From positions 11,306 to 75,305 of the forward strand of contig JAKJBW010000006.1 of assembly GCA_022706785.1 (NCBI GenBank): a DNA stretch of 64,000 nt, in the 5' to 3' direction. Each line of letters begins with the position of its first letter. Positions within the stretch are counted from its first letter, which is position 1. Below, piece after piece: positions 38,881 through 58,996 of the stretch. Origin of the DNA: Bacillota bacterium (GTDB lineage Bacteria > Bacillota > Clostridia > UBA1381 > UMGS1253). The notes under the pieces were generated by a model. The model searched no databases. It had not been told where the DNA came from and was given only the letters and a program-made list of their open reading frames with translations. Made by a program: the position numbers and the translations under genes.

Positions 38881-39012
38881 CCAAGATCCTCCGAAGCATC
38901 AGATCACTTAGCGCGAATGCCATGCGTATTTATAAACACAATGCCATTATACTATCTATCGCCGCGCACGTCAATCATCAACATTCGGTTTTTCATTTGA
39001 ACACGGGGGCTA

Positions 39013-39053
39013 TAAATGATGATAAAGGCCGCATATCAAACCATGCAGCCTTT
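39013..39053 (-). terminator. Hairpin between the two GT2 genes
   Basis: 11-bp stem AAAGGCTGCAT/ATGCGGCCTTT whose only non-Watson-Crick pair is G-U on the minus-strand RNA. The U-tract is weak. Confidence 0.35.
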
Positions 39054-39098
39054 TATTATTCAATATGGGAGCCGCAAAGGAACGTAGACTGCAGGCGC

Positions 39099-42633: not shown

Positions 42634-44565
42634 ATGGTCGCCGAAAATTTGAGCATTAAAACCGGGCTGCTGGGACTCAGGAAAGCCGACGTTGACAAAT
42701 ATATTACCGGCATGGTGCAGGAATACAGCACCGTACTGTCCGAAATGCGTAAAGAGCTTGCGTCTTTGGGGACGGAAAAAAAACATCTTTTGGCCGAATT
42801 GCAGCGGGCTAAAGCAGAAGGCCGGCAGGTGGTTTATGAAGAAGAACCCGCGGAAAAAAATGCATTTGCAGAATTGCTTAATTATTCGGACAAAGCGGTC
42901 AGGCGCCTGGACAGGACCATCGCACTGATAAATCAGATAGCCGAGCAAAAGATAGATGATATGGTGCAAAAGGCCGGCGTACAGATGGCTGAGTATGATG
43001 CAAAGCTGGCCCGGCTGGGCGATGAGATTGAGCAGACCCGCGGAAGCGTTGAGAGCCTGCTGGGTGAAGTGGTGGATTTACTTAAAACCAATATAGATGA
43101 AATCATAGGCGAACCGCGGGCGCGCAGCTCTGCAGATACGGCCAAAACGCCCGCATCCCCTTCCAAGACCATAAGAAAGGCCACTGGAAACGCTGAGACC
43201 ACTCCCCCGGCGGAAACAGAAAACGTGGTAAGCCTGTTTGGCGCTGCGGCAGGGGCAAAGCCCAGTCTGACGCTTGTGTCCAAGGAAGTGGAAACGGCAG
43301 TTATCAAAACCCTTGAAACCTACCAAAGCCTCAAGGGCGAATACACCAAAAAACTTGAAAGTATTTTAGCTGGGCCAGGCGATGAAATCAGCGGCGCGGC
43401 ATTGTTTTTTCAGATCAATGAATTCGTTATGACCAACTATTTTTTAAATTGCTCTGCCGACGGGGCTTTGATAAAGGCTATTTCAGACTATATTATGAGT
43501 CTGGATAAGGGTGTGTATGTCGAGCGGCTCTCCTACGACCAGCTTGGCGTGATTTATGACGGCCAGAGCAGCAAAGGCAAAGTCTGCGCGTTTGCCAGCG
43601 ATGTGCTGGCTTATATTCAAAGCGGTATTTTTGTAAACGGCAGGAAAGCGGAGCTGTCCGCCAATGCCGGAATTGCGATGTATTCAAAGAACAGCGCAAG
43701 CGCTGAACTTGTGATAAATTATGCGGGTATCGCACTCTATAAGGCTAAGGAGCGGGGCAAGGGCCTATACCAGTTCGTGGATGACAATCTGATCAGTGAG
43801 GTGGAGTTTGATAACGCGTTAAAAGCGGATTTGCGCAGCGCCATTGATAACAACGAACTGGTATTGTTCTATCAGCCGCAGTATACGGCAAAAACAAAAG
43901 AACTGGCGGGTTTTGAAGCGTTGCTCCGCTGGCAGAACCCCAAGTATTATCAAATGTCGATTGATGATATCATAAAAATAGCGGAGCAGGAAAATCTTAT
44001 CGAGAAAATAGGGCTGTATCTGTTTCGCAAAGCGTGCCTGTTTGCTAAGGAAGTGGGGGCCAGAAGCCAAAAACGCTGCATAATTTCGGTCAACTTTTCG
44101 TCCATACAGATCGCAAATGACAATTTTGTGAATATCATAAAGCGTGTGCTGGGCGAAACGGGCGTGCCGCCCGAGTATTTGGGGCTTGAAATCACCGAGT
44201 CATGCTTTATGGACTGTATAGGCGAAACCTGCCAAAAGCTTAATCAGATCAGAAACATGGGCATTACTATTTCTATCGATGATTTCGGCACAGGCTATTC
44301 CACACTGTCCTATCTGCTCAAGCTGCCTGTGTCGGTGATAAAGATCGACAAAACCTTCCTAGACGAGCTGGAGTCGGGTAAAAAGGCCGAGATATTTGTT
44401 GCGTCTATCATTAATACTGCGCACAATCTTGGGCTTCGCGTGGTAGCCGAAGGGGTTGAAAATGAGCGTCAGATGCAGGTGCTGGCGGAAGCGGGATGCG
44501 ATTACCTGCAGGGGTATTATCTGTCAAAGCCGGTTCCCGAAAACGAGGCATACTTGTATTTATAA
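42634..44565 (+). CDS. DivIVA-motif coiled-coil protein fused to a degenerate GGDEF domain and an EAL phosphodiesterase domain
   Basis: The N-terminal GLLGLRKADVDKYITGMVQEY resembles the DivIVA F-x-GY-x2-EVD-x-F motif and is followed by coiled coil. The GGDEF position reads SYDQL. The EAL domain has intact FEALLRW, EITES, DDFGTGYS and KIDKTF. Start at ATG 42634 after AAGGGGG. Confidence 0.8.
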   Translation: MVAENLSIKTGLLGLRKADVDKYITGMVQEYSTVLSEMRKELASLGTEKKHLLAELQRAKAEGRQVVYEEEPAEKNAFAELLNYSDKAVRRLDRTIALINQIAEQKIDDMVQKAGVQMAEYDAKLARLGDEIEQTRGSVESLLGEVVDLLKTNIDEIIGEPRARSSADTAKTPASPSKTIRKATGNAETTPPAETENVVSLFGAAAGAKPSLTLVSKEVETAVIKTLETYQSLKGEYTKKLESILAGPGDEISGAALFFQINEFVMTNYFLNCSADGALIKAISDYIMSLDKGVYVERLSYDQLGVIYDGQSSKGKVCAFASDVLAYIQSGIFVNGRKAELSANAGIAMYSKNSASAELVINYAGIALYKAKERGKGLYQFVDDNLISEVEFDNALKADLRSAIDNNELVLFYQPQYTAKTKELAGFEALLRWQNPKYYQMSIDDIIKIAEQENLIEKIGLYLFRKACLFAKEVGARSQKRCIISVNFSSIQIANDNFVNIIKRVLGETGVPPEYLGLEITESCFMDCIGETCQKLNQIRNMGITISIDDFGTGYSTLSYLLKLPVSVIKIDKTFLDELESGKKAEIFVASIINTAHNLGLRVVAEGVENERQMQVLAEAGCDYLQGYYLSKPVPENEAYLYL

Positions 44566-44596
44566 AATCAGTTTGAGGTTTGAGGGGTTTTATGTT

Positions 44597-45889
44597 ATGA
44601 TAAAAAAAACGCTGTTTCTTTGCCTGGCATGGGTTCTTTCCATAGGCTGTCCGCTTAGCGGCAGCGTCAGTGCCGCCGATGTCAGCTATATGGAGGAGGC
44701 CAGAGTGTTTTACGATCTCGGCCTTTACAAGGGCGTTTCCGCAGACCACTTTGATCCTGATCTGTTCTCATTTTCGGATAAGGAGACGGCGCTTGTTTTC
44801 CTGCTCAGGCTGGCCGGCCAGCGCGATAACGTACAGGCAAGCAGCGACAGCGGGGCAAACTATACGCTGGGCGCCTACACAGACGGAAGTTCGGTGTCGG
44901 ACTGGGCAAGGAAGCATGTGGCTTACGGGCTGCGGCAAAAGCTGATACCCGATATCTCAAACAATCAGATTTTGCCCAAGCGGCTTTGCGATGGCAAGAC
45001 GTTTACCGCTATCCTGCTTCGCATAATGGGGTATTCATTAGACAACGATTTGTGGGAAATATCCACCTACATAAACAGCTATATAGGCGGGATGACAGCT
45101 GACGACGCCAGGGAGTACGCGGACAAAATCCTGACTAAAAACGATATGATCGCCATTGTGTGGAAATCGCTTTATATTAAAGATAAAAACGGCACCAGCT
45201 TTTTAAGCCGCATTGTCGCAGACAATGGCCTGCAAAAAAGCAGGATGACAGCGTTAGGCTTTACCTATTCGTCCAGCGGGATAACCGCCCCGGCTTTCAG
45301 AAAAACGGCAGTGAATCTTGACAATGTTCAAAACAACAGATATAGTATGCAGGATGGGTCGGCATACTACGGCGAAACTTCCGGCGGCGTCCCCAACGGA
45401 AGAGGCGTTGTGTATTATGCCGACGGGAGCAAGTACGAGGGTTCGGTTGTAGGTGGTATGCGTCATGGAGAAGGCAAGCTGACGCGCAACGATGGCTTTG
45501 TTTATTCGGGCAGTTGGGAAAATGATAAAATGACCGGTTACGCCACCTTAAAATGGCCGAGCGGCGACAGCTATACCGGCAATTTGTACACCGGCTATTT
45601 TCAGGGTTACGGTACCATGGTGTGGGCCAGCGGCGACAGCTATACCGGCAATTGGCGTGAAGGTAAGTTTTCGGGCCAAGGCACCTTCAGATGGGCAAAC
45701 GGAAACTACTATCAGGGCGACTGGAGCGATGGTGAATTTGACGGATACGGTGTGCTTAATATACTGAATTCGGGTATTTATGAGGGGCAGTGGCGCATGG
45801 GTAAAAAGAACGGCCGCGGAAAGTTTGTGTCTGTTGGCAGCACTGTCCAGGAGGGAACATGGGAAAATGACAATTATGTAGGGCCGTAA
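44597..45889 (+). CDS. Secreted protein with SLH-like N-terminal region and C-terminal MORN repeats
   Basis: Signal peptide MIKKTLFLCLAWVLSIGCPLSGSVSA. There are at least seven MORN-type repeats (YxGxxxxGxxxGxGxxxxxxG, for example YEGSVVGGMRHGEGKLT, YTGNWREGKFSGQGTFR). Start moved to 44597 (GAGGGG RBS), which removes the overlap with the EAL gene. Confidence 0.75.
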   Translation: MIKKTLFLCLAWVLSIGCPLSGSVSAADVSYMEEARVFYDLGLYKGVSADHFDPDLFSFSDKETALVFLLRLAGQRDNVQASSDSGANYTLGAYTDGSSVSDWARKHVAYGLRQKLIPDISNNQILPKRLCDGKTFTAILLRIMGYSLDNDLWEISTYINSYIGGMTADDAREYADKILTKNDMIAIVWKSLYIKDKNGTSFLSRIVADNGLQKSRMTALGFTYSSSGITAPAFRKTAVNLDNVQNNRYSMQDGSAYYGETSGGVPNGRGVVYYADGSKYEGSVVGGMRHGEGKLTRNDGFVYSGSWENDKMTGYATLKWPSGDSYTGNLYTGYFQGYGTMVWASGDSYTGNWREGKFSGQGTFRWANGNYYQGDWSDGEFDGYGVLNILNSGIYEGQWRMGKKNGRGKFVSVGSTVQEGTWENDNYVGP

Positions 45890-45913
45890 TGGCCGCGAAA
45901 GGCGAGGGTATGG

Positions 45914-46261
45914 ATGCGGGTTGTGGTGCTTTCTCTCTTAAATGCGATTCTTTTGGTGTCCGGCCAGCTTTTGTGGAAGGCCGGCCTTGCGGGGCGGGAA
46001 TTTAACAGCGCTGAAACAATTGTGAAGGCTATGTTCTCGCCGCTTATCCTAACGGGGCTTTTCATATATGCTGCCGCGACGGTGCTGTGGCTGTATATCC
46101 TTACCCAGGCCGATATCAGCTATGTGTATCCGCTTACCAGTGTGGTTCATATCATTATGCTTTTGGTGGCGCTGTTTATCTTTAAAGAGCATGTGTATCT
46201 TACCAGATGGATAGGCGTTTTTCTCATTACTGCCGGCGTGTGCTTTGTGGGACTCAGATAG
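45914..46261 (+). CDS. Small 4-TM EamA/DMT-type protein (ArnE/ArnF-like lipid-linked sugar flippase candidate)
   Basis: 115 aa with four hydrophobic helices. The pattern LWLYILTQADISYVYPLTS...WIGVFLITAGV is typical of single EamA domains. Confidence 0.6.
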   Translation: MRVVVLSLLNAILLVSGQLLWKAGLAGREFNSAETIVKAMFSPLILTGLFIYAAATVLWLYILTQADISYVYPLTSVVHIIMLLVALFIFKEHVYLTRWIGVFLITAGVCFVGLR

Positions 46262-46329
46262 GCGTCTAAAAGGATACAAAACAGTTTTTACGACCCGGTT
46301 TTGCCGGCCGACTTTTGGGGGTGTGATGG

Positions 46330-46707
46330 ATGCTTGATCGAAATCTTCAGATTATTTTGCTGATTGTAACGCTTTCATTTTTGGTTTATATAATAAACAT
46401 GGTAAGAAACAAAAAACTGGAGCTTCGCTACATCTTAATCTGGCTCCTTACCGCCGTGGGGCTGCTTGTGATTACCATCCTGCCGGGCGCTATCCATATG
46501 CTGTCGGCTATGCTGCATATTGTGGAGCCGGTAAACACACTGTTTTTGGCAATCATTTTCTTTTTGATTATGATTATTTTTTCACTGACAAAGGAAGTGT
46601 CAAGACACTTTGTGAAAATAGGAACGCTGGTTCAGGAGATTGGGCTTTTGAAGCTTGAAATAGAAGCGCTGAGAAAACAGGTTACGGATAATAGCGAAAG
46701 CAAATAA
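46330..46707 (+). CDS. DUF2304-like small membrane protein
   Basis: 125 aa. The N-terminal TM is followed by VRNKKLELRYILIWLLTAVG, then more TM helices and a C-terminal coiled tail. This matches my recollection of DUF2304 proteins that accompany GT2 genes. Confidence 0.55.
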   Translation: MLDRNLQIILLIVTLSFLVYIINMVRNKKLELRYILIWLLTAVGLLVITILPGAIHMLSAMLHIVEPVNTLFLAIIFFLIMIIFSLTKEVSRHFVKIGTLVQEIGLLKLEIEALRKQVTDNSESK

Positions 46708-46788
46708 ACGGCGGGGCGATAAAGCTATCGCCAGGGTTTTGTTTAATGCGGATGATTTTAGTATGTTTTGCGAGGGGGATCGGGTGGT

Positions 46789-48513
46789 GTGAGTAAAAAT
46801 ATCAAGGTTATGCTGACAACGGAGGGAACCTACCCTTTCCATCAGGGAGGCGTAAGCACTTGGTGTGATATTCTGGTGAACAAGCTGGACAGTGTGGATT
46901 TCGTGCTCTACAGCCTGATGATGAACCCGTTTATCTCGCAGATATTTCCGCTCCCCTCTTCAACGCAGCTTGTCAAGGTGCCGCTGTGGGGCACGGAGGA
47001 ACCGAGCGAATACCTTGAAAGCTCATTTTCGCGGGTGTACCTTTCCAAGCAGAGAACTACCGACGATGTTGTGGAAAAAAAGTTTCTGCCCCTTTTCAAG
47101 GCGCTTATCAGAGAGTTTGTGAGCCTTGAAAAAAATCCTGTGCGGCTTGGCGAAACGCTTTATGCGATGTATCTGTATTTTCAGGAGTATGAGTACAAGA
47201 AAAGCTTTAAATCCGATATCACATGGGCCGAATATAAGCGCCTGATACATGACTTTACTGAGGATGAGGAGAACAAAATAGACAGCCCCAGTGTTTATGC
47301 GCTTATTCAGAGCCTGGGGTGGGTATACAGGTTTATGGTCACGCTAAACACCCCGCTTCCCGAGGCGGATGTGGTGCATTCGGCAGCGGCGGCCTTTTGC
47401 GGGATCCCGTGCGTGCTGTCCAAAATTGAGCGGAAAACACCGTATATGCTCACAGAGCACGGCGTGTATATCAGAGAACAGTATCTGTCGCTGTCCAAGC
47501 GGGGATATCCTTCGTTTTTAAATACATTTTTTATACGCATGATCAACTCGATAATAAGCTTAAATTACGAGTATGCCGACATCGTTTCGCCCGTGTGCAA
47601 ATATAATACGCGCTGGGAACAGCGGTTCGGCGTTGTTAAAGAAAAAATAAATGTCATATACAACGGCGTTGACACCGAAAAGTTTGCTCCGGCTTCGGCC
47701 AAAAAAGTCAAGGATGTGCCCACCGTCGTTTCCATAGCCCGTATAGATCCGCTTAAGGATATTATAACGCTTATCGAAGCCACCGAGCTGGTGGCAAGGG
47801 AAATCCCCGATGTCAGGGTGATTGTGTACGGCTCTGTTTCGGTGGACGATTATTATGAGGAGTGCACACAGAAGGTCAAAAGCCTTGGCCTTGAGGACAC
47901 AGTCATCTTTGCGGGGCACACCAGTGATGTGCCCGCGGCCTATAACAGCGGCGACATTATTGCATCGTCGAGCATTTCGGAGGCGTTTCCGTATTCAGTG
48001 GTGGAGGCTATGATGAGCGGCAAGCCTGTGGTTTCAACCGATGTGGGTGGAATTGCTGAAGCGCTTGGCGACTGCGGGATCCTTGTCACGCCAAGGGCGC
48101 CGGCAGAGCTTGCGGAAGGCATCGTCAAACTGCTGCAGAATCCGGATATGGTGGAAGACATGGGGAAACGCGCCAGGATAAGGGCGCTAGAGCATTTTTC
48201 CATTGAAAAGGTGCTGGAGAACCATTATAATACTTATAATGGACTTATTGCAGGAGATTATCAGCTCAAGAAGACTTTGCCTATTTCACTTTTGCAAAAG
48301 CAGAAGTTTTATGCCGAAAAAGGCTATACCCTTTTGAATATGGGCTATATCAAAGAGGCAATCGAGCAGTTTCGGGAGGCGATCAGCGCATCGCCAAACA
48401 CGCCTACTGTTCCGGTGCTTATGCTTGAAATCGCCAATGCCTATAAGAAAATGGGGGAGCACCAAAAAGCAGATCTTGAAATAGAAAAAATCGGCTATAT
48501 CACAGGCGCGTAA
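46789..48513 (+). CDS. pelF: PelF-like glycosyltransferase (DUF3492 plus GT4) with C-terminal TPR extension
   Basis: The N-terminal MLTTEGTYPFHQGGVSTWCDILV matches the PelF/DUF3492 signature (EGTYPYxxGGVSSW). The GT4 core has SISEAFPYSVVEAMMSGKPVVSTDVGG. The last ~90 aa are TPR-like (YAEKGYTLLNMGYIKEAIEQFREAI...IANAYKKMGEHQKA). The start is GTG 46789 or ATG 46810. Confidence 0.8.
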   Translation: MSKNIKVMLTTEGTYPFHQGGVSTWCDILVNKLDSVDFVLYSLMMNPFISQIFPLPSSTQLVKVPLWGTEEPSEYLESSFSRVYLSKQRTTDDVVEKKFLPLFKALIREFVSLEKNPVRLGETLYAMYLYFQEYEYKKSFKSDITWAEYKRLIHDFTEDEENKIDSPSVYALIQSLGWVYRFMVTLNTPLPEADVVHSAAAAFCGIPCVLSKIERKTPYMLTEHGVYIREQYLSLSKRGYPSFLNTFFIRMINSIISLNYEYADIVSPVCKYNTRWEQRFGVVKEKINVIYNGVDTEKFAPASAKKVKDVPTVVSIARIDPLKDIITLIEATELVAREIPDVRVIVYGSVSVDDYYEECTQKVKSLGLEDTVIFAGHTSDVPAAYNSGDIIASSSISEAFPYSVVEAMMSGKPVVSTDVGGIAEALGDCGILVTPRAPAELAEGIVKLLQNPDMVEDMGKRARIRALEHFSIEKVLENHYNTYNGLIAGDYQLKKTLPISLLQKQKFYAEKGYTLLNMGYIKEAIEQFREAISASPNTPTVPVLMLEIANAYKKMGEHQKADLEIEKIGYITGA

Positions 48514-48622
48514 AAACGGCCTGTTATTCTGTATATTTGCGGCGGTATGTCTGCCGATTTAAGGCATACGGCTGCGCTGCGGGTCTGAAACTGTTTATTA
48601 GGTTTATGAGGGGGAACACGAA

Positions 48623-49054
48623 ATGCCGGTTACCGACAGAGTCACATTGTTCGGATACAGTGCTACGGAAGTTGAAAAACGGGTGGAAAAGATAAAAGCG
48701 GAGTTTGAGGAAAAGAAAGCTGAGCTTGAAGCTTCCGTTTCCGAGCTCAAGGCAGAGCTTGAGACGCTCAAAACGCAGATCGAGCATGAAAAAAACAACA
48801 AAAAGGTTGTCGTGAAAAAGCGGGTCGTGCATGCTCAGGGCACTGAAAGCAAGGAACAAAGTGAGATAATGGAGGCGCTCTACAACGCGCATATCAAATC
48901 CACCGAGCGCATTTTGAAGGTGCAGAAGAATATCTCCATGACCTTGGAGAAACGAAAGTCACTCATACTGATCCGTGAACGTAAGGCCAATGAAATGAAA
49001 AATGATTTGCAGAATCTGATAGATTATATCGACTCACTGGCAAAAAGCTACTAG
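48623..49054 (+). CDS. DivIVA-motif coiled-coil protein (short)
   Basis: 143 aa with N-terminal LFGYSATEVEKRVEKIKAEFEEK followed by heptad-rich sequence. GAGGGGGA RBS. Confidence 0.6.
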   Translation: MPVTDRVTLFGYSATEVEKRVEKIKAEFEEKKAELEASVSELKAELETLKTQIEHEKNNKKVVVKKRVVHAQGTESKEQSEIMEALYNAHIKSTERILKVQKNISMTLEKRKSLILIRERKANEMKNDLQNLIDYIDSLAKSY

Positions 49055-49089
49055 AGCCTTGCTAAATTTAGGGGGAAGGAGTTGATGAG

Positions 49090-50193
49090 ATGGCGTCTTT
49101 TGATTTGAATTTTCCTACCAGCTTTTTTGGCCTGAATAAAAAGGATGTACGCAAATGTTTTGAAGAGCTGGAAAAAGAGCAGAAAAAAGTAATGGAAGAG
49201 CTCGAGAAAAAGAAAAAACAGCTGGAACGTGAAGAACAAAAGCTACAGGAAAGCTTGGACGAAGCCCAAAAAGAGATTGTAAAATATGAAGACGAAATCG
49301 TAGAAACTCCTGGTTTGCCAAGCGAGCTTATTAGCGACGCCTATAAAAGGACGGAAAAGACCACGGCGCTGATTAACATGCTGGCCGATGAGGAAGCCGC
49401 ACAGCTCACCAAAAAGGCAAATGAAAAGCTGGCCGAATACGATATCATGCTTGACGAGCTGCAGGAATCCATCAATGAAAATAAAGAGAAGATCGAGGCT
49501 ATACTAAACGATGTGCTCAGTCTTTTGAAGGCCAATGCGGAAAGCGTGATCAAGAAGGATAAAAAGCCCGATTATAAAGACGAGCTTGCCGAGCCGGAGC
49601 TGTCGGGCAAAAAGGTGATTGACCTATTCCGTGAGAAGCTTCAGGAAAACAAGCTTTCGCTTGAAAAAGAGCAGCGGGAGAGAATGACTGCGGACGGCAC
49701 CTCTCTTGACAATATCAACAAGCTGATGATGTTTAAGAAAAAATATGCCTCCCAGAAAGACGAGGAGGATGAAGACGAGCTTGCCGAGGTGCTTATAGGG
49801 AAAAAGAAGCCCAAAGATGAGCTGTATGATCTGCTCAACGGCTATGATGTTGACGATGATGCCTATGAGGAGCGGGCTGCCGTAAGAAAGCCGGCCAAAC
49901 CGGGGCTAGGCGCTATTGACCGGTTTGCGTTTGATGAAACGGAAGAAGAAAGCCCTGCGGCGGGGACGCGGCCTTCCCAAACCGCAGAGGGTGCGCAGGC
50001 CGGCAGTGAAACTGAGATCAAGCAGATGAGAAACACCCTGATTATTGGCAAGATTGCGGGTGAGGACCTTGTCGACAGTGAAAATAACGTGGTGATACCC
50101 AAGGGCAAGGTGCTTTCAGAGGAGGATATTGCTTTGGCTGAGGCGGCTGCAAAGCTGCCGGAGCTGATCATAAATATGGTGCTGCCACAATAA
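49090..50193 (+). CDS. DivIVA-motif coiled-coil protein (long, acidic) with a small C-terminal globular module
   Basis: 367 aa with N-terminal FFGLNKKDVRKCFEELEKEQKK, long E/K-rich coiled coil, an acidic linker, and the C-terminal IIGKIAGEDLVDSENNVVIPKGKVLSEEDIALAEAAAKLPELI. Confidence 0.6.
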   Translation: MASFDLNFPTSFFGLNKKDVRKCFEELEKEQKKVMEELEKKKKQLEREEQKLQESLDEAQKEIVKYEDEIVETPGLPSELISDAYKRTEKTTALINMLADEEAAQLTKKANEKLAEYDIMLDELQESINENKEKIEAILNDVLSLLKANAESVIKKDKKPDYKDELAEPELSGKKVIDLFREKLQENKLSLEKEQRERMTADGTSLDNINKLMMFKKKYASQKDEEDEDELAEVLIGKKKPKDELYDLLNGYDVDDDAYEERAAVRKPAKPGLGAIDRFAFDETEEESPAAGTRPSQTAEGAQAGSETEIKQMRNTLIIGKIAGEDLVDSENNVVIPKGKVLSEEDIALAEAAAKLPELIINMVLPQ

Positions 50194-50206: not shown

Positions 50207-51811
50207 ATGATTCATGCAAACAGCTCGGATAACGCGGGCACGGAAAGCATTTTTAACAGCTTGATAAACGAAGTGACCTCAAAGCAGCTGCACCCCGAAA
50301 ATCACTACGAGGTGGCCGCTATTTTGGAGTCTATCGGTTGGAACGACGAACGGGCCTTTTCGGTGTTCGGTGTCGGCGATATTTTTGAGCTTGCGCTCGA
50401 AATTTTCAATGTCATTAATGAAGATATCAGCTTTTCTTCCTTTGAGGAAGAGGTCAGATACTCGTTCTGGCACAAAAGCAATGTTGTTATAAAAAGCTTT
50501 ATCCGCGGCGTCATTTTCGCTTTGCCCATGGCGCTTTCCGTCCTTTCCATGCTTACGCTGCGCTTTTCTCTGTGGTCGTATGAATATTTGTCGGTAGAGG
50601 TCGCCACCTGTATTGCGATAGGCACAATATTCAGCTTCCTTACAGTTGGCGGATTTATGCAGGCCATCGCGCGCCGCGGATTTTTGTATCTGCGGCAGGG
50701 GTATTACAATCTTGCCCGGAAAATCACATGGTATTTTATACGGCTGGGCTATCTGCTTACGGCAGTGGTGACCCTGGCGTTTCTTATATTTAACCTGATT
50801 TTTGAAGCCTTTCCCTACGATATGATGATGATTATCATCGTCTATTATGTGTTTTTGTGCGCTATCTGGTTTTCGGTTACCGTTATGTACATTCTGGAGC
50901 GGGAATTTACGTTTACCGGCCTTATCGCGGGCGGTATTGTCATTGTGTACGTTTTGTTTGTGCTTCTCAAAATCAATATTATCGTGTCGCAGGTAATTGC
51001 GCTCGGTATTGTGGCGATAGTCGGCATTGCGCTCATTATTCATTTCTTCAGTAAAGAGGAGCGCAAGATGGAAAAGGGTGTTGAGCCCTCATTGCCCAAA
51101 CGGTCCATCACGCTCTATACCACCTTCCCGTTTTTTGCCTACGGTTTTGTGTACTTTGCGTTTTTGTTTGTGGACAGAATCATAGGCTGGTCCACAAACA
51201 ACTCCTACATGCCGTATATCATCTGGTTTAGAGGCGCCTATGAGCTGGGTCTGGACTTTGCGCTGCTGATGCTGATTGTGCCCATGGGGGCGTGCGAGGT
51301 GGTTGTCAGCAATATGATGGATGAACTGGCGGAAAGCCAGAAGAACTCTTTTGGCGTGGATTCGCTCACCATCGACAGCAGATTCTGGCGGCTCTATGTC
51401 AGAAGGCTTTTTGTGGTCGCTGTTATTTCGGTGGTCAGCGCAATTATTACCTATATTGTAGTATGGCTTTTGGAGAACAATCCGCTGCCGGGCTTTAGGA
51501 CAGGCTTTTTATCCAATTATGTGACCAATTTTGTGCTCATTATCGGCTTGATCAGTTATGCCATCGTCGCGGTGTCACTGATGAACTGCGTTACGCTTTT
51601 TTCACTGTCCCAGCCCGAAATGGCAGGCAGGGCGGTGCTGATTTCCCTGGTTGTGAACATTGTCGTGGGTTTTCTGCTCAGCAGGTGGATAAACTATTAT
51701 TATTCGGTATTCGGGCTTTTGGCGGGGTCTATTGTTTTCCTTGTGCTGAGTACCAGAAAGATACTCCAGGTGTTTAGGAATCTGGACTATTACCTTTATT
51801 TCCAATCGTAA
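50207..51811 (+). CDS. 12-TM membrane protein (PelG/MOP-like exporter candidate) with ~95-aa cytoplasmic N-terminal domain
   Basis: 534 aa. I count 12 hydrophobic segments after a soluble N-terminus. The position downstream of the PelF-like gene parallels pelF-pelG. No diagnostic motif recognised. Confidence 0.45.
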   Translation: MIHANSSDNAGTESIFNSLINEVTSKQLHPENHYEVAAILESIGWNDERAFSVFGVGDIFELALEIFNVINEDISFSSFEEEVRYSFWHKSNVVIKSFIRGVIFALPMALSVLSMLTLRFSLWSYEYLSVEVATCIAIGTIFSFLTVGGFMQAIARRGFLYLRQGYYNLARKITWYFIRLGYLLTAVVTLAFLIFNLIFEAFPYDMMMIIIVYYVFLCAIWFSVTVMYILEREFTFTGLIAGGIVIVYVLFVLLKINIIVSQVIALGIVAIVGIALIIHFFSKEERKMEKGVEPSLPKRSITLYTTFPFFAYGFVYFAFLFVDRIIGWSTNNSYMPYIIWFRGAYELGLDFALLMLIVPMGACEVVVSNMMDELAESQKNSFGVDSLTIDSRFWRLYVRRLFVVAVISVVSAIITYIVVWLLENNPLPGFRTGFLSNYVTNFVLIIGLISYAIVAVSLMNCVTLFSLSQPEMAGRAVLISLVVNIVVGFLLSRWINYYYSVFGLLAGSIVFLVLSTRKILQVFRNLDYYLYFQS

Positions 51812-51832: not shown

Positions 51833-53806
51833 TTGACAGGGTTTCATGTTAATATGGGGTTGTATTTTTTAAAATATACGCTTGCATACGGGGCACTGTT
51901 TTTTTTAGTGCCATGCTTTATCTTTACGAATATCAAGCCCGATTTGGTGAAGGGACTGGCAGCCAACTATATCAAAATGACGTTTTGGGTCATTATTTTC
52001 GGCTATATCACAGTGCTTTTGCGGCTGTTTGAGTTTATTACCTTTTTTGCTATCGTTCTTATTGCGATTGCTTACAAATATTATAAAAAGAGCCTGACAG
52101 CAGGTAAAAACCGCGGTTATATCGGGGACGACGTGGGGGTGTTGGTCATCAACCATGTCGACCGTGTTGAGCGTATTGAAAACAAGCTGCTCAAATATAT
52201 TGTCAAAACCCTGCGCGCTATGGGTTCAGACATTTCGGATTATTTCGGCAACCCATGGCTTTTTCTCGGTTTTTTGATGCTTTGCGCCATATTTGGTTAT
52301 GCCGGCTATCTGCACTTTCACGACGCCTTTACCAGCGTAGCGCCCGAAGCGGGCGAGTCGTACCTTACCATGGTGCGTATGAAAAGCTTGGGAAGCCGTG
52401 TGCTGTTTACGGATAACATCTATCCGCAGGGGTTTTATCTTGTGCTTGAAACGCTGCAAAGGATGATGCGGATGGATCATTTGTTTATCGTGCGCTTTAC
52501 AGGCGCCTTTCACACGCTGATAACCGGCTTTGGCATGTATTTCTTTGTTTCAAGGCTGACCAAAAGTCAGACGGGCGGCATGGCGGCTGCTTTGATTTAT
52601 TGTGTTTTGGGCATCAGCTATGCACAGAACGCTTGGTTGCGCAATACGGCCACACCGCTGCAGTTTGCCATGATATTTGTGCTTCCCGTCCTGTTCTTCT
52701 TCTACGAGTACATAAGGCGGTCAAGGCGTGAGGATTTTTTTGCGGCATTTTTCGGGGCTATGGTCATCGGGCTTGTGCACCCGAGCGCGTTTGTCTTTTT
52801 GGCCATCGGCCTTGTCACGCTTTGTGCGGCATGCCTGATACGCGGCGCTTCGGGAATTTTTCATAAGCTGCTGGAGGTTATTGCGTTTGTGGTCATGGCG
52901 ACCGTGATCTCTATGATGCCTGTAGGAATAGGCCTGCTGATGGGCAAAGGCTTTGACGGCGGCATGATAGAATATTTGTTTGCGACGGATTATACCATCA
53001 AAGCGCCGTCTTTGAATCTGTTTGACTATGCGGCGATGGCGGCGATGGTGCTTATTGCGCTTCGGGCGCTGGTCAATATCCGCAACCAGAGCCGTTTCAT
53101 ATCACATTTATGGGTACTGATGCTGGGCGCTGTCTGCCTGGGCGGCTATCTGTATGCGGGAGCCGTTACAAAAAGCGTCTATATAAACGACGGGGCAAGA
53201 ATGATCTGGATGCTGATGCTGCCGGTCGTTGTTGCCTTTGGCGCGGAGGCGGTGTTTGCGGGGCTGAGGCTTTTGCCGTATATGTACTACGCGGGGTATT
53301 TCATCGGCATTGCGGCGCTGATAACCGTGTTTGGCTTTTTTCCTCAGCAGCCTATTACTGCTCAGAAGCAGGAGTATGACAGCACTGTGGCACAATACCT
53401 GCGCATAACCAAAACCTTCAGACCGACACAGTGGATGATTGTATCATGGCAGGAGGAATATGCGCTTTCCCTGAGCAACGGTTTTCATATGATGACGGAC
53501 GATTTTCTAAACCGCTACAGCCCGCATGAGCAAGTGCTTGTGGACAGGACCGGCAATGAGCCGGAAAAGCTGGAAATGCAGGATGTGCTTATCTTTTGCG
53601 AAAAGAGAGCCTACAAATTTCCCGGACAGAGCAGCGACCAGCTGCAATACCGCGGCGATACAGGCCGCCGTGTGAAGGAATGGCTTGTCATCTATCAGGA
53701 AAAGCATGATAACCTGACGCTGTTTTACAGTGACAGAAATTTAGAAATATGGCGCATCCATTATGAGATGAGCGATGAGGAAAGAATAGAGCGTCTTTGG
53801 CAGTGA
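51833..53806 (+). CDS. Large polytopic membrane protein with C-terminal soluble domain (paralog A; GT-C-like candidate)
   Basis: 657 aa. It shares DNIYPQGFYLVLETLQRMMRMDHLFIVRFTG with paralog B (DGVYPYGYEAIISALQKLFFIDPAVIVRFYG) and has a similar C-terminal domain. The start is TTG 51833 or ATG 51854. Confidence 0.5.
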   Translation: MTGFHVNMGLYFLKYTLAYGALFFLVPCFIFTNIKPDLVKGLAANYIKMTFWVIIFGYITVLLRLFEFITFFAIVLIAIAYKYYKKSLTAGKNRGYIGDDVGVLVINHVDRVERIENKLLKYIVKTLRAMGSDISDYFGNPWLFLGFLMLCAIFGYAGYLHFHDAFTSVAPEAGESYLTMVRMKSLGSRVLFTDNIYPQGFYLVLETLQRMMRMDHLFIVRFTGAFHTLITGFGMYFFVSRLTKSQTGGMAAALIYCVLGISYAQNAWLRNTATPLQFAMIFVLPVLFFFYEYIRRSRREDFFAAFFGAMVIGLVHPSAFVFLAIGLVTLCAACLIRGASGIFHKLLEVIAFVVMATVISMMPVGIGLLMGKGFDGGMIEYLFATDYTIKAPSLNLFDYAAMAAMVLIALRALVNIRNQSRFISHLWVLMLGAVCLGGYLYAGAVTKSVYINDGARMIWMLMLPVVVAFGAEAVFAGLRLLPYMYYAGYFIGIAALITVFGFFPQQPITAQKQEYDSTVAQYLRITKTFRPTQWMIVSWQEEYALSLSNGFHMMTDDFLNRYSPHEQVLVDRTGNEPEKLEMQDVLIFCEKRAYKFPGQSSDQLQYRGDTGRRVKEWLVIYQEKHDNLTLFYSDRNLEIWRIHYEMSDEERIERLWQ

Positions 53807-53905
53807 TCCTGCCCGCAGCGCCGACCGCCGGGGCAGGACAGTACAGCAAGACGTGCAGCACGAAGAAGGCCACAATACGCCGCAGGCATGAAAGGGGGCG
53901 CAGGC

Positions 53906-55984
53906 ATGTTTCCCATACAGCACACACTGTTTTTGTTAATCAAAGTGCTGCTGGCTTTTGGCATTTTATATATTTTCCTTCCGTCCAGACTGACCGTGTT
54001 TGATGAGCATGGTGATGACTGGACAGACAAAGTCATGGTGTCTATGACCCATTCGCATGTTATTATCATCATCCTGGTGCACCTTTTGGTGGTATTGCGG
54101 ATATATGAAACGATTTCTTTGTTTATCGCCATTATCGCGCTGACGATATTCATCATATCCCTGCGCGCAAAAAGAGCCAGACAGGAGACGGAGGAAAAGC
54201 GCAGTGCGTTTTCCCTGCTGCTGGACGTGGTGGATGGCAGACTGGGCAACAAGACGCAGCGAAGGCAGAAGCTGTCTGAATATTTAAAGAAAGCGCCTGC
54301 GGCACTTATGCGCGGGATAACACATGCCTTTATCCATCCGTTCGACGGGGTGATACTGTTTGCCCTGTTTGGGGTGGCTGCGGCAATAAGGTTTAGCCAT
54401 GCGATGCAATACCTCTACTATGGCGCCTCCGACTGCTACGTTCACCTTGCGTGGGCAAAGTATCTGGGTGTTAATAAGCTTTATTATGACGGTGTTTATC
54501 CTTATGGATACGAGGCCATCATATCGGCGCTGCAAAAGCTTTTCTTTATCGATCCGGCTGTGATTGTGCGGTTTTACGGCGGCATAGGCAGTATGCTGAT
54601 TGTATTTTCCATTTTCTATATTTTAAGAAAGAATATGAAGGGCAAATATATTCTGATTTTCGCAGGTGTTGCGGCGTATGTGTTGGGCACCGAGCTGCCC
54701 AACGAAACCAACAACATCTGGCGTCAGCTGTCCGCGCTGCCGCAGGAGTATGCCGCCGCATTTGTACTGCCGGGCATACATTTCCTCAACGTGTTCTTCA
54801 ACACGGGCAGGAGGCGGTATCTCGCACTGGCGGCTGAGGTTCTGGCAATCACGGTGTTCATCCACTTTTATGCTGCCGCGTTCTTGGGTATCGGTTACGC
54901 TTTTTTGACCTTGTTTCACTTTGGCAAGCTGTTTCGGGGCAAGACATTGCCGCGACTCATTGGATATCTTGGCTTTGGCGGTGCGATAGGCATTTTGCCT
55001 ATTGCGGTAGCGCTCGGGCTGGGCATGAAATTCCACCAGCTGTCCCTAGGCTTCGTTGCAGAAAGCGCTACCGTTTCAACAGCGCTTGACTGGCATACCG
55101 AGATTTTCCGCTACAGGGAAGTTGACCCCACGCTAAAGCTGGTTTTGTTTTGCGCTTTGGCAGTAGCGGTTTATACAGCCCTGCGGGCGTTTTTCAAAAA
55201 AAGCCCGGCATACGCCTCAGCGGCTCCGTTGACGCTTACCATTGCCGCGATGAGTGTATTGTCCTATACTCAGGTCCGCGCTGAGTATATCGGCTTTCCG
55301 TCGCTGCTTGAGTTTTCCAGGGCCAGCACATTCTTCGGTTTTGTGGCTGTGGCGCTGCTTGCCTTGACCATCTATCTTCTGGTCGAGTTTCTGCCCGTTC
55401 ACAAGCTGGTCAAGTATGTTGCCGGGTTTGGTATGAGCGCCTTTGTGCTCATGACTGTGTTCCAGCCGCAAAATTATGCCGTGATGCAGCCTACAGGGGC
55501 AAAGCTTGAGTATGATGAAGCCGCCTACGCGTACTATAAAATAAAAGAGGATTTTCCCATCTTAAACTGGACCATCATCTCGCCGGTTGAACAGTATCAG
55601 CAGAGCATGGGCTACGGATGGCACTACAACCTGTGGGAATTTGTTAAGGACATCCAGATAGACAAGAAGGAAGAGGTATCCTTTCCCACCGATTATGTCT
55701 TCGTGATTGTGGAAAAAAAGCCGCTGAATCAAGCCAAGCCGTATACCGAGATGCCCGAAATTACAACGGAGGATGCGTCACAGCCGTTTCCGGATATGTC
55801 AGGCTCTCCGGAAAAATACTACACCATCTATGAAAACCGCAGAGTCATTGAGGCGAAGGCATATTATTGGATGGAGGAATACATGGGGACAAAGGGTAAC
55901 TTTGCGGTTTACTGGGAAGATGATAAACTTAAAATATATATGTTGAAGCAGGATGGAACAGAGCCGGTCAATCTGGCGCAATGA
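53906..55984 (+). CDS. Large polytopic membrane protein with C-terminal soluble domain (paralog B)
   Basis: About 692 aa from ATG 53906 (AAGGGGG RBS). It is colinear with paralog A, including the C-terminal W-x-I-I-S...EK-K/R block. Confidence 0.5.
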   Translation: MFPIQHTLFLLIKVLLAFGILYIFLPSRLTVFDEHGDDWTDKVMVSMTHSHVIIIILVHLLVVLRIYETISLFIAIIALTIFIISLRAKRARQETEEKRSAFSLLLDVVDGRLGNKTQRRQKLSEYLKKAPAALMRGITHAFIHPFDGVILFALFGVAAAIRFSHAMQYLYYGASDCYVHLAWAKYLGVNKLYYDGVYPYGYEAIISALQKLFFIDPAVIVRFYGGIGSMLIVFSIFYILRKNMKGKYILIFAGVAAYVLGTELPNETNNIWRQLSALPQEYAAAFVLPGIHFLNVFFNTGRRRYLALAAEVLAITVFIHFYAAAFLGIGYAFLTLFHFGKLFRGKTLPRLIGYLGFGGAIGILPIAVALGLGMKFHQLSLGFVAESATVSTALDWHTEIFRYREVDPTLKLVLFCALAVAVYTALRAFFKKSPAYASAAPLTLTIAAMSVLSYTQVRAEYIGFPSLLEFSRASTFFGFVAVALLALTIYLLVEFLPVHKLVKYVAGFGMSAFVLMTVFQPQNYAVMQPTGAKLEYDEAAYAYYKIKEDFPILNWTIISPVEQYQQSMGYGWHYNLWEFVKDIQIDKKEEVSFPTDYVFVIVEKKPLNQAKPYTEMPEITTEDASQPFPDMSGSPEKYYTIYENRRVIEAKAYYWMEEYMGTKGNFAVYWEDDKLKIYMLKQDGTEPVNLAQ

Positions 55985-56004
55985 AGACAGGGGGGATTTT
56001 ACAA

Positions 56005-57843
56005 ATGATTAACGGAGTTTGGGGTTGGTATCAGATACTGGCGGTTTTGGCCGTTCTGCTGTTGCTGTGTATACTGATTGGGATTATAAGCTATTTTCGT
56101 AAAAAAGCCGGCATAGAAAAACAGCTGTATGAAAAGATATTTAACAGCTGTAAGGAGCCGTGCAATATCAATCAGACGATAGGCGGCATTTTTAGGCTGA
56201 TGTCCGCCAAGATAAAGGCAAACGAGTACGGTTTTTATTTATTGGACGGCAAAAACGGCCAGTTTGTGCTTAAGTCTATCCACTATAAAAACGAAAGTGA
56301 CGATAATCTTAATTTGTCTTATTCGGGGTTGATCCCGCATAAGGATATCAAATATGTTTTTCCTGTGGCGCTTGGCCCCGCGGATATTGCAAAAGATGTG
56401 GGTGTCTTAAATGAGGCAAAGACCAAGATAGCGTATGTGCGCATACGTGGCGGCAAGGCGCTTATCCAGCTGGTGGTAGGCAGCAGCTTCAAAATGGATA
56501 AAAACACGGCCGCAGCGCTGAAAAACGTGTCTGAAAGACTGGAGTCCGTTATCCAGTGCCTTATTGAAGCCGAAATTAAAAACACCAAGGCCAAGATTTT
56601 GGAAACCTCCCAGCAGGCTACCAAGAGCATAACAAGTATGATAAGCGGTGACGGTATCCTTAAAATGGCGGTGAGCATGTTTACCAAGACCATCAACGCC
56701 AAGGGCGGATTTTTCCTCAAGCGGGGCGAGGACGGTTATGAGCTGGAGGTAAATACAGGGTTTTCCAAGGAAACGGGCGTCATGTTCAAATACGATGCCG
56801 AGCTGCACGGTTTTCTCTACGATTTTCTGGGCAGTAAAAAGCTTGCTACGCTGAATGTCAACGACAGCAACTTTTCCATCATGCCAATATACTTAATCGC
56901 CGAAGGCGTAAAGCAGATACTGCTGTTTAGGATCGATTATGCGGATAATGTGGGTATTGCGGGTTTTTGGTACGATCAGCCGTATGAAATAGATGAATAC
57001 CAAACCGTGTCGCTGCTGTTGATGTTTTCAAAAATATCTGACGTTTTCGGCAAAACCAAGCAGCTTTCACGCAGCTGTGCCGACAACATCGAGACCTTAA
57101 AGCTCATATCCACGCTGGTTGACGATTTAAGCCCCTACACCGTCGGCTTTTCAAGCCTGATGCAGAAGTATGCCACACTGATTGCAGAGCACATGCGGCT
57201 TCCGAAAGAAGAGGTTGACGAGATCGCGCTGGCGGCGTTTTTAAGCAATATCGGTATTGCAGCGCTTTCATATGACGTTTTCCTTAAGAAGGGCAAATAC
57301 ACTGAATTTGATTATGAAATCATAAAGCTTCACTCCGAGGTAGGCGCGGATATTATTGAGTCGCTCCAGGGGCAGAGCCGGGCGGCGGATATGGTGCGCT
57401 ACCATCACGAGCGCATAGACGGCTGCGGATACCCTTATGGACTAAAAGGTGACGATATCCCCATCGGTGCAAAGATTTTGGCGGTGGCGCAGTTCTTTAT
57501 CGCAAAAATATCGCCAAGGAATTTCCGGGACGCCAGTACATACGATGAGGCCTTGGCAGCCATAGAAAGCGCGGCGGGCACCCAGCTGGACAAAGACGTG
57601 GTCGACAATTTCCTGAGCTGTGTTGCAAACATAAGAAATGAGCACAAATATGATGATGGTTCCTTAGACTACTGCTGGAATATGCGTTTTGTGTCCAGTG
57701 AGCTTTGCAACAAGTGTCCCGTTAAGGTGCGTACCGACAGGAAATGCTGGGAGAGTTCCGCGACGCTGTGTGTGGCGCACGGAAACAAGTGTGAAACGTG
57801 TTTTATTTATACCGAGTATCAGGGAAGAATGAACAAGAATTGA
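56005..57843 (+). CDS. Membrane-anchored GAF-like / HD-GYP protein with C-terminal Cys-rich 'two-CW'-like domain
   Basis: One N-terminal TM (WYQILAVLAVLLLLCILIGIISYF), two GAF-like regions, HD-GYP motifs (HSEVGADII, HHERIDGCGYPYGL), and the tail YCWNMRFVSSELCNKCPV...RKCWESSATLCVAHGNKCETCFIY. The start is ATG 56005 (AGGGGGGA RBS); the alternative is 55981. Confidence 0.8.
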   Translation: MINGVWGWYQILAVLAVLLLLCILIGIISYFRKKAGIEKQLYEKIFNSCKEPCNINQTIGGIFRLMSAKIKANEYGFYLLDGKNGQFVLKSIHYKNESDDNLNLSYSGLIPHKDIKYVFPVALGPADIAKDVGVLNEAKTKIAYVRIRGGKALIQLVVGSSFKMDKNTAAALKNVSERLESVIQCLIEAEIKNTKAKILETSQQATKSITSMISGDGILKMAVSMFTKTINAKGGFFLKRGEDGYELEVNTGFSKETGVMFKYDAELHGFLYDFLGSKKLATLNVNDSNFSIMPIYLIAEGVKQILLFRIDYADNVGIAGFWYDQPYEIDEYQTVSLLLMFSKISDVFGKTKQLSRSCADNIETLKLISTLVDDLSPYTVGFSSLMQKYATLIAEHMRLPKEEVDEIALAAFLSNIGIAALSYDVFLKKGKYTEFDYEIIKLHSEVGADIIESLQGQSRAADMVRYHHERIDGCGYPYGLKGDDIPIGAKILAVAQFFIAKISPRNFRDASTYDEALAAIESAAGTQLDKDVVDNFLSCVANIRNEHKYDDGSLDYCWNMRFVSSELCNKCPVKVRTDRKCWESSATLCVAHGNKCETCFIYTEYQGRMNKN

Positions 57844-57853
57844 GGTATTTTAT

Positions 57854-58633
57854 TTGCGCAGAGAAAACCGACTGCATGGAATTAAAAATTTTACTGTTTA
57901 CTATGGATACGGCAAAGAAGACCAGCTGGCAAGCTATGACCTTTTGGTTTTGGAGCCTAAGGCACGCATGCCGCAGGATATTTATGCGCTTAAACGTACA
58001 GGCAGCACAGTTGTCGCGTATTTAAGCGCGGTGGAGGTAAGCAGCGACGACGAGCTTTTTAGCGCGCTTGGCGAAGAAGACATCCTGCGTTCTAAAGACG
58101 ATCCTCTTATCAACAAGGAATACGGCACACATTATATGGATATTGCTTCGCCCAAGGTGCAGAATCTGCTGCTCTATCGTGTGGAGGATATTTTGAAAAG
58201 CGGCTATGACGGCATTTTCCTCGACACACTCGACGATATTGAATATTTAAATATTTCCCGGGAAAAGCAAAAGGCTATGCTTGCGGGCGCAGGCCGGGTC
58301 GCCAAGGAAATCAGGCGGCTGTTTGCCGATTCGGTTTTAGTGCAGAACAATGGCCTTTTGCAGGTATGTGACTATACTCATGCTTATATAGACGCCATAT
58401 GCTTTGAGAACCCACCGTATAAAACCTGGGGCGGCCTTGTTTGGACAGCAAGCGCCCTTGCCAGGGCAGGACGGCTGCGCAGGGATTTTGGCATACAGCT
58501 TTTGTTGCTGCATGGGCTTTGTGCAAATGATAACAATGTCAAAAACCGTATTTCCCGTTATGTGCTGAAGCATTTTGCAAAGCTCAGGGGCTATTTGTAC
58601 TATGAAACCGGCAGTCATTATAATCGCATCTGA
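57854..58633 (+). CDS. GH114 / TM1410-family TIM-barrel glycoside hydrolase-like protein (PelA-hydrolase/endo-alpha-1,4-polygalactosaminidase-like)
   Basis: SYDLLVLEP...TVVAYLSAVEV...GYDGIFLDTLDDIEY matches the family pattern (DLVVID..AYLSxGE..GFDGVxLDxVD). TTG start. No signal peptide is visible. Confidence 0.65.
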   Translation: MRRENRLHGIKNFTVYYGYGKEDQLASYDLLVLEPKARMPQDIYALKRTGSTVVAYLSAVEVSSDDELFSALGEEDILRSKDDPLINKEYGTHYMDIASPKVQNLLLYRVEDILKSGYDGIFLDTLDDIEYLNISREKQKAMLAGAGRVAKEIRRLFADSVLVQNNGLLQVCDYTHAYIDAICFENPPYKTWGGLVWTASALARAGRLRRDFGIQLLLLHGLCANDNNVKNRISRYVLKHFAKLRGYLYYETGSHYNRI

Positions 58634-58691: not shown

Positions 58692-58996
58692 GGTTGTACC
58701 CGGCACTGACGGTGAGGTAATCGCTTATGGAAAAGGTGTTTTTCGATATTTCGGTTGCGGTGCGGCGCCGGTTGTGATAAAATGAAAAACAATCCGGAAT
58801 ATGTGATACTGTTCCCAAATAAAATCATAGGCTAAAACTTGTCTTTTTTCCGTCTGACTGCGTCAAAGAACCATCGGCAATAAACAAATTATTGCCGAGA
58901 ACTTTTTTCTTGTCATATAAAAAAATCCGGCGTTTTATTTGTCTATTCTTTTATTTAGGAACAGTATAATATATCAGAAAATGTGGGTAAATATAA

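Follow-up and report, generated by a model that had tools for sequence, protein, structure and literature searches.

Divergent DivIVA-like proteins in a PelF-containing gene cluster of Clostridia: a candidate scaffold pair for polysaccharide synthesis and a related GGDEF-EAL protein

Three DivIVA-like proteins and their heads

We analyzed a 64,000-nucleotide stretch of DNA from a Bacillota bacterium (contig JAKJBW010000006.1 of assembly GCA_022706785.1, forward strand positions 11,306 to 75,305; hereafter the window), in which three genes encode proteins, here designated P1, P2 and P3, whose N-termini resemble those of the DivIVA/GpsB superfamily. P1 carries a DivIVA-like module in front of a degenerate GGDEF domain and an EAL domain, and P2 and P3 are encoded next to each other, behind the gene for a PelF-like glycosyltransferase. 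The features on which the following analyses are based are listed here (coordinates are those of the window).

42634-44565, + strand: P1, 643 amino acids
42634..43113, + strand: N-terminal DivIVA-like module of P1 (residues 1-160), with the head LLGLRKADVDKYI at residues 12-24
43399..43761, + strand: degenerate GGDEF domain of P1 (Pfam GGDEF, E = 6.5e-7; partial, profile positions 35-159 of 161)
43825..44532, + strand: EAL domain of P1 (Pfam EAL, E = 1e-67)
46768..48513, + strand: PelF-like glycosyltransferase of family GT4, extended at its C-terminus by a TPR region (NCBIfam PelF, 154.6 bits, cut-off 100; Pfam DUF3492, Glycos_transf_1 and TPR_8)
48623..49054, + strand: P2, 143 amino acids, with the DivIVA-type head TLFGYSATEVEKRV and two long helices
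49090-50193, + strand: P3, 367 amino acids
49090..49557, + strand: N-terminal DivIVA-like module of P3, with the head FFGLNKKDVRKCF at residues 12-24 (Pfam DivIVA, 17.5 bits, E = 0.0043)
49684..49704, + strand: short motif ITADGTS in the otherwise disordered, acidic linker of P3 (T200, A201, D202 and G203 invariant in 16 proteins)
50008..50193, + strand: small C-terminal beta domain of P3 (residues 307-367), the best-conserved part of P3-like proteins, with a predicted local distance difference test score (pLDDT) of ~83

A first-pass annotation of the window had proposed DivIVA-type N-termini for the products of three genes, starting at 42634, 48623 and 49090, and the three N-terminal strings were indeed found there, in + strand genes. 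When all six-frame open reading frames (ORFs) of at least 100 amino acids (25.8 k residues) were scanned with the relaxed head pattern [FLIVMW][FLIVMWRTK]G[YLF]x3[DE][VIT], three of the four occurrences fell at residues 9-14 of P1, P2 and P3. Within the P1/P3 family G14 and V20 are invariant, as are L9, F10, G11 and Y12 within the P2 family. AlphaFold models, with pLDDT of about 90 for the helices (above 90 in P3), place a helix after the head, starting at residue 14-17 (helices 14-59 and 77-142 in P2; 17-65 and 78-156 in P3). In the alignments, the positions of the DivIVA loop-tip residues F17-R18 are occupied by LF in P2, FF in P3 and LL in P1, and basic residues precede the loop-tip positions in P2-like proteins. 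All three proteins combine an N-terminal head, an invariant Gly and a hydrophobic loop tip with a long helix that follows, and none of them has a transmembrane segment.

Relationship of P1, P2 and P3 to DivIVA and GpsB

The similarity between P1 and P3 is not limited to the head, as the annotation had it, but extends over an entire module of about 155 residues (P1 residues 3-160 versus P3 residues 1-154; 33% identity, E = 1e-19, BLASTP). P2, on the other hand, showed no pairwise similarity to P1 or P3, and for this protein the description as a shared head motif holds. The relationship to DivIVA was likewise visible at one level and not at another. Single proteins scored below the Pfam DivIVA cut-off of 28 bits (14.6 bits for full-length P1 and 19.6 bits for its isolated module, 17.5 bits for P3, no match for P2); the single-sequence matches to DivIVA, GpsB and MAG0865 in Pfam and NCBIfam were sub-threshold, and phmmer with P3 against the sequences of solved structures found nothing relevant. 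Family profiles, however, link all three proteins significantly to bona fide DivIVA and GpsB. The check named in the annotation, a significant score with a DivIVA profile, is thus failed by the single sequences and passed at the level of family profiles only.

For the P1/P3 module, which is kept in five P1 orthologues (these were taken from syntenic loci, and all carry it), an alignment of 19 P1 and P3 sequences was assembled, 17 of which match Pfam DivIVA at E <= 1 (best 1.3e-6). Compared with the sequences of solved structures, the profile of this alignment gave GpsB N-domains as top matches, aligned on the head (E = 3.8e-4 and weaker). A module profile built from 14 sequences and searched against 1.84 billion representatives matched 216 proteins at E <= 1e-3, nearly always at their N-terminus, and 55 of the 141 matches scanned carry Pfam DivIVA at E <= 0.01. 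Among the proteins matched were the bona fide DivIVA proteins P0130 (Pfam DivIVA, 118 bits; N-terminal sequence MLTPLEVNNKEFKTRFRGYDVDEVEEFL; E = 1.8e-5 over module positions 4-153) and P0145 (Pfam DivIVA, 105 bits; E = 5.5e-5). When the module was aligned with seven of these DivIVA proteins by hhalign, the match (probability 98.3%, E = 2.3e-14) spanned 146 columns, beginning with the head and closing with the terminal LLxxVLxLLK segment, so that the homology of P1 and P3 to DivIVA covers the whole 131-position Pfam domain. These profile and hhalign results indicate that P1 and P3 contain a complete but divergent DivIVA domain.

P2 has 22 relatives among 5.8 billion clusters, nearly all of 143 amino acids. 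The close P2 family by itself gave a marginal match to DivIVA (2wuj, E = 0.11) and no Pfam DivIVA match in 21 members. An enlarged alignment, which included distant P2-like proteins with the heads FKRSFFGYDPVSV, FKRSFIGYDPVAV or FKRQIFGYRPEDV, matched DivIVA with hhalign at a probability of 96.2% and E = 2.8e-9, and matched solved structures of GpsB (E = 5.9e-4) and DivIVA (2wuj, E = 6.7e-3). As the match to DivIVA is confined to 30 head columns, coiled-coil composition cannot explain it. Overall, judged by sequence, P1, P2 and P3 are relatives of the DivIVA/GpsB superfamily, and we call them divergent because no window protein attains the Pfam DivIVA cut-off.

Features shared with Bacillus subtilis DivIVA and actinobacterial Wag31 are a head of the form F-x-x-x-h-h-G-Y/L-x3-[DE]-V-x-x-[FY]-L at the extreme N-terminus, a long helix after it and a second helical half ending in an LLxxxLxLLK-like segment. 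The window proteins differ from DivIVA in having two hydrophobic loop-tip residues instead of F-R and in being encoded in a polysaccharide rather than a division gene cluster, and also in their additional parts, i.e., the disordered linker and C-terminal beta domain of P3 and the GGDEF-EAL region of P1. The best solved-structure matches to the P1/P3 and P2 profiles were GpsB N-terminal structures (9pv2, 8e2b/c, 4ug3 and 6gp7), which align over the head and first helix. In GpsB the Tyr and Asp residues of the head bind the tails of penicillin-binding proteins; P1 and P3, by contrast, have G-L for G-Y and variable Asp positions. No evidence was found in P1, P2 or P3 for either the C-terminal tetramerization region of DivIVA or the C-terminal domain of GpsB.

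Conservation of the gene cluster and origin of the P1 module

P1, P2 and P3 are encoded within a single co-directional cluster on the + strand (~40.3-58.6 kilobases (kb) of the window). The cluster starts with genes for a LytTR response regulator and a histidine kinase, which are followed by P1 and a secreted MORN-repeat protein; genes for a small EamA-like protein and a DUF2304 protein then precede those for the PelF-like protein, P2 and P3, and the cluster ends with the following genes.

50207..51811, + strand: 534-amino-acid polytopic membrane protein, a distant PelG-like candidate exporter (weak Pfam PelG match; syntenic in nearly all loci)
51833..55984, + strand: two large polytopic membrane proteins (657 and 698 amino acids) of the conserved cassette (syntenic)
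55981..58633, + strand: membrane-anchored HD-GYP protein (620 amino acids; Pfam HD_5, E = 4e-31) and GH114, PelA-hydrolase-like protein (Pfam Glyco_hydro_114, E = 1e-11)

Neither the 657- nor the 698-amino-acid window protein has a Pfam match, and one orthologue has a weak match to DUF6541. Two GT2 genes and a small HD-GYP gene are located upstream of the cluster on the opposite strand. The structure of the operon was not resolved by a scan for promoters and terminators, the sole element shown being a terminator-like hairpin (58874-58898) 3' of the GH114 gene. Inside the PelF-like gene, at its 3' end and ahead of P2, a near-consensus sigma-70-like site is found (48203-48231; TTGAAA, 17-nucleotide spacer, TATAAT), possibly an internal promoter.

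In 17 loci read (numbered with the prefix L), which represent Clostridia and Bacilli, a P3-like gene comes directly after a P2-like one. Wherever the contig reaches (it is cut in L008, L016 and L021), a PelF-like gene precedes the pair and the gene for the 534-amino-acid protein follows directly upon the P3-like gene, with the exception of L019. In this locus, from an uncultured Clostridium, the P2/P3-like pair (L019:9012-11062) has textbook DivIVA heads (FKKVLFGYDTADV and FKKSFTGYDKQQV) and adjoins a polysaccharide deacetylase-like gene. The complete cluster, with its genes in identical order, is present in seven distinct genomes, that of the window among them; they represent one uncultured clostridial clade, the members of which are labeled as Oscillospiraceae, Eubacteriales, Clostridiaceae and Firmicutes ADurb.Bin193. 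Distant loci, among them those of Desulfosporosinus, Candidatus Dichloromethanomonas, uncultured Bacillales and the cultured Paenisporosarcina indica PN2, keep a core of the PelF-like, P2-like, P3-like and 534-amino-acid proteins and the two large membrane proteins, often together with genes for the HD-GYP and GH114 proteins, whose linkage to the cassette was seen in L002-L005, L007, L015 and L022-L024. In L006 and L017 the two genes of the pair abut or overlap, and in an uncultured Bacillales (L015:8876-10225) a single ORF of 449 amino acids encodes a P2-like head (WKRSWIGYKKSSV), a P3-like head (VLFGLNMRSVDKYI) and the P3 C-terminal domain, in this order; this natural fusion suggests that the two proteins act together. 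The annotation's proposal that two free scaffolds serve the polysaccharide machinery thus finds strong support in synteny.

Two further observations concern the genes around the pair. In L020 (4615-5184), L023 (7909-8268) and L024 (7978-8313), extra TPR-like ORFs are located between the PelF-like and P2-like genes, i.e., in the region that corresponds to the TPR tail fused to PelF in the window. The 620-amino-acid HD-GYP protein (55981-57843), which is linked to the cassette even in distant loci without P1, consists of an N-terminal transmembrane helix, a region of ~330 residues without a family match, and a Cys-rich tail (CWNMRF...CNKCPV...CWESSATLCVAHGNKCETC).

Outside its module, P3 (16 relatives in the 5.8 billion clusters) has two conserved elements. 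The ITADGTS motif, which also occurs in the distant P3-like proteins of L006, L014, L018, L020 and L022, looks like a docking motif. The C-terminal domain has the invariant residues GK.AG...KL..LI.NM, and the ~60-residue end of P3-like proteins reads GK.AGEDL.D..G..I...G..IT.....A...GKL.ELIINM; the domain has no family in Pfam, and its profile gave a match (E = 5.9e-5) to 3e7h, a small, repeated module inserted in the beta subunit of RNA polymerase. A c-di-GMP (cyclic di-GMP) site of the PilZ-like or MshEN-like type was considered for this domain and rejected, as on inspection the motif fits neither type and the RNA polymerase insertion module matches instead.

The annotation's description of P1 as a degenerate GGDEF domain joined to an EAL domain was borne out. 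The partial GGDEF domain has SYDQL in place of GGDEF (RLSYDQL at residue 298, kept in orthologues) and no RxxD I-site and, lacking the GG(D/E)EF motif that defines an active diguanylate cyclase, would not be expected to act as one. Conversely, all seven motifs of the EAL domain (FEALLR, ISVNFS, EITE, DDFGTGYS, IKIDK, AEGVE and LQGY) are intact in six of six orthologues (the window protein and five others), and P1 is, by these motifs, predicted to be a catalytically competent EAL phosphodiesterase.

All seven genomes (7/7) of the uncultured clostridial clade in which the contig covers the upstream region contain P1, and it is missing from every distant locus over the length of the contig; of the 150 best representatives, just one cluster (P0040) joins the module to GGDEF-EAL. 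A word-indexed protein search with the N-terminal 251 residues of P1 (42628-43380) returned no match, not even P1 itself, even though the orthologues P0040 and P0181 exist in the collections, so that a null result of that search is not evidence of absence. In a neighbor-joining tree (without bootstrap values), the P1 modules are the sister group of the P3 modules of the same clade and are nested within a wider radiation of P3-like proteins. Identity between P1 and P3 is 36.7%, as compared to 19.6% between P3 and distant P3-like proteins. On these data the P1 module is a recent paralogue that apparently arose by duplication of the P3 module in one clostridial clade.

The component domains of these proteins are already known. 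What appears to be undescribed is the joining of a DivIVA domain to a degenerate GGDEF and an EAL domain, the conserved DivIVA-like pair in a cassette of the Pel-like type, and the way in which the P1 module arose, as a duplicate of a scaffold module; full-text searches of the open-access literature found no paper that treats DivIVA together with EAL and c-di-GMP as a fusion and none linking PelF with DivIVA, in agreement with the first-pass annotation, which knew of no characterization of the architecture.

Possible roles of the P2/P3 pair and P1

With 154.6 bits in the NCBIfam PelF equivalog, the glycosyltransferase can be assigned to the PelF component of a Pel system. No PelD, PelE or PelA deacetylase domains were found in any gene between 37415 and 58633, the GH114 hydrolase-like protein being present alone. 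Compared to the Gram-positive pelDEADAFG operon of Bacillus cereus (Whitfield et al. 2020, PMC7112168), the window locus is alike in having a PelF-type GT4 protein, a candidate PelG-like protein with a weak match, a GH114 PelA-hydrolase-like protein and a link to c-di-GMP enzymes. It is unlike that operon in having no PelD, PelE or PelA deacetylase, in the TPR tail on PelF itself, in the location of P2 and P3 between the PelF and PelG-like genes, and in the presence of two extra membrane proteins of 650-700 amino acids and a GT2/DUF2304/EamA set. A Gram-positive class with pelF and pelG only was mentioned, but not analyzed, in PMC7112194, and the window cluster probably belongs to this class. 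P2 and P3 were also considered as diverged forms of PelD or PelE; this was rejected, since both lack transmembrane segments as well as GAF, GGDEF and TPR domains.

The reading that we favor, to which we would give an even chance of being right, is that P2 and P3 scaffold the synthase at the membrane and that P1 docks there through its P3-derived module. P2 and P3 would be soluble coiled-coil proteins that associate with the membrane and serve as paired adaptors of a PelF/PelG-like polysaccharide synthase specific to Firmicutes; they would organize it as the membrane proteins PelD and PelE do in canonical Pel systems. In the DivIVA head, F17 and K15/R18 are exposed on intertwined loops that insert into the bilayer (PMC3924036); the hydrophobic loop tips LF, FF and LL and the nearby basic residues would fit peripheral membrane binding of a similar kind. 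The C-terminal beta domain of P3 and its TADG motif may contact the neighboring membrane protein or PelF. P1 would co-assemble with P3 through its module or occupy the same site, which would place c-di-GMP hydrolysis, or c-di-GMP-dependent trigger signaling, beside the synthase. Membrane binding, complex formation and local signaling, like any phenotype of these genes, are what we infer from the homologies and gene order described above. Localized c-di-GMP degradation by P1, as the annotation had envisaged, is made plausible by the recent paralogy of its module with that of P3.

As an adaptor, GpsB connects membrane-bound envelope synthases, and in Staphylococcus aureus it coordinates the wall teichoic acid machinery (PMC9241681); by analogy, this link would be a precedent for an adaptor role of P2 and P3. 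For P1 the closest functional parallels would be tethered enzymes. Spatially tethered c-di-GMP phosphodiesterases are represented by Caulobacter TipF, with a coiled coil and an EAL domain at the pole, and by DipA/Pch in Pseudomonas. P1 resembles these in having an N-terminal, non-sensory targeting region on an EAL protein, which suggests local control of c-di-GMP. It differs from them in that the putative targeting device belongs to the DivIVA family and is a copy of the module of a scaffold encoded alongside it in the operon, and from TipF, which is membrane-spanning and catalytically inactive, in being soluble with intact catalytic motifs. A further-reaching version of the favored reading, which we put forward tentatively and regard as possible though somewhat improbable, is that P2 and P3 are the unrecognized DivIVA-family core pair of a widespread "PelFG-only" synthase, in which they take over the organizing role of PelD and PelE, and that in one clostridial clade a phosphodiesterase captured a copy of the scaffold module to dock on it.

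Several results weigh against the favored reading. Pfam DivIVA (PF05103) is reached at its cut-off by none of the window proteins, and the NCBIfam matches were at E = 0.033 for P1 (GpsB, head only) and E = 0.024 for P2 (a DivIVA-related family). The DivIVA alignment used with hhalign was picked from the matches of our own profile search, and profile scores may be inflated by coiled-coil composition, a caution that weighs less for P2, whose match is to the head only. Fold comparison of the monomer models with Foldseek gave no match for P2 and just weak 44-residue RNA polymerase matches (E ~0.08), to the C-terminal domain, for P3; long helical hairpins are not discriminating in such a comparison. 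A crossed-loop parallel dimer that binds lipid is, on these monomer models, a putative form of the head. The assignment of the 534-amino-acid protein to Pfam PelG is weak (E = 0.14 for the window protein; two of eight orthologues match, best E = 1.3e-6), and in L019 there is no PelF-like gene and no gene for a 534-amino-acid protein within 10 kb of the pair. Neither a receptor for c-di-GMP nor a cyclase was recognized among the genes of the locus.

This last point bears directly on a different role for P1, namely that, instead of acting as a local sink, it functionally replaces PelD as the c-di-GMP receptor or trigger enzyme of the system; when its EAL domain binds or turns over c-di-GMP, the DivIVA-like stalk would then change shape and switch the assembly of P2, P3 and the synthase on or off. 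Neither PelD nor any other recognizable receptor is encoded in the locus, the module of P1 is paralogous to that of the scaffold, and a degenerate GGDEF domain adjoins the EAL domain, as is the case in LapD, PdeR and other receptors and trigger enzymes. The EAL catalytic motifs, however, are intact in six orthologues, which argues for real hydrolysis, and since distant loci without P1 keep the cassette, P1 cannot be the universal receptor of the system; we regard this role as unlikely. Equally unlikely, in our judgment, is the proposal that the P1 module is a mere dimerization or oligomerization stalk which does not dock on P2 or P3, and that P2 and P3 have a structural or regulatory function in the cluster without binding to membranes, i.e., DivIVA ancestry without DivIVA function. 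EAL phosphodiesterases do act as dimers, and the partner-binding residues of GpsB are not conserved in the alignment. The DivIVA head alone is reported to bind lipid weakly in dimers, strong binding requiring large oligomers (PMC3924036). In each of the three families, however, it is the head residues that stay invariant even between deeply diverged members, a sign that the head itself is under selection. The nearest relative of the P1 module is specifically the P3 of the same clade, and P2 and P3 are strictly adjacent and in one case fused.

P1 and P3 are homologous to DivIVA over its whole Pfam domain, and Streptomyces DivIVA is reported to interact with the cellulose-synthase-like protein CslA at hyphal tips, both of which would favor true DivIVA behavior, i.e., that sensing of negative curvature concentrates polysaccharide synthesis and c-di-GMP degradation at poles and septa. 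This targeting, which the first-pass annotation had suggested, is the explanation to which we give least credence. The match of P2 to DivIVA is in the head alone, and GpsB shares the head yet is not known to sense curvature. Curvature-dependent localization requires higher-order DivIVA assemblies (PMC3924036). No support for it was found, and the weak lipid binding of the DivIVA head in dimers also speaks against it.

If the favored reading is true, DivIVA/GpsB adaptors would extend from cell division and wall growth to exopolysaccharide secretion, and the pair would explain how Gram-positive loci with PelF and PelG only can work without PelD and PelE. P1 would be a concrete and genetically simple example of c-di-GMP specificity that is hard-wired by fusing a copy of a scaffold's own module to an enzyme, so that local second-messenger signaling would have evolved by scaffold-domain duplication. 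As the core cassette is present in the cultured P. indica PN2, the scaffold hypothesis is directly testable; the P1 fusion is so far found just in uncultured Clostridia.

The gene calls of the window region recur in a public record of an uncultured Firmicutes (GCA_029974295.1, contig JARKSM010000081.1), and the window neighbors GdpP, FtsH, ComEC, HolA and several SLH proteins are consistent with such an origin. Two GtrB-like GT2 genes (38191-39824, - strand), the genes for the EamA-like protein (115 amino acids) and the DUF2304 protein (45914-46707, + strand) and those for the polytopic proteins of 650-700 amino acids (51833-55984, + strand) travel with the cluster; by analogy, this set resembles a three-component extracytoplasmic glycosylation system (lipid-sugar synthase, flippase and GT-C enzyme) and might act as one. 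The gene for a GdpP-type cyclic di-AMP phosphodiesterase (14273-16282), ~26 kb upstream, is unrelated to the cluster described here.

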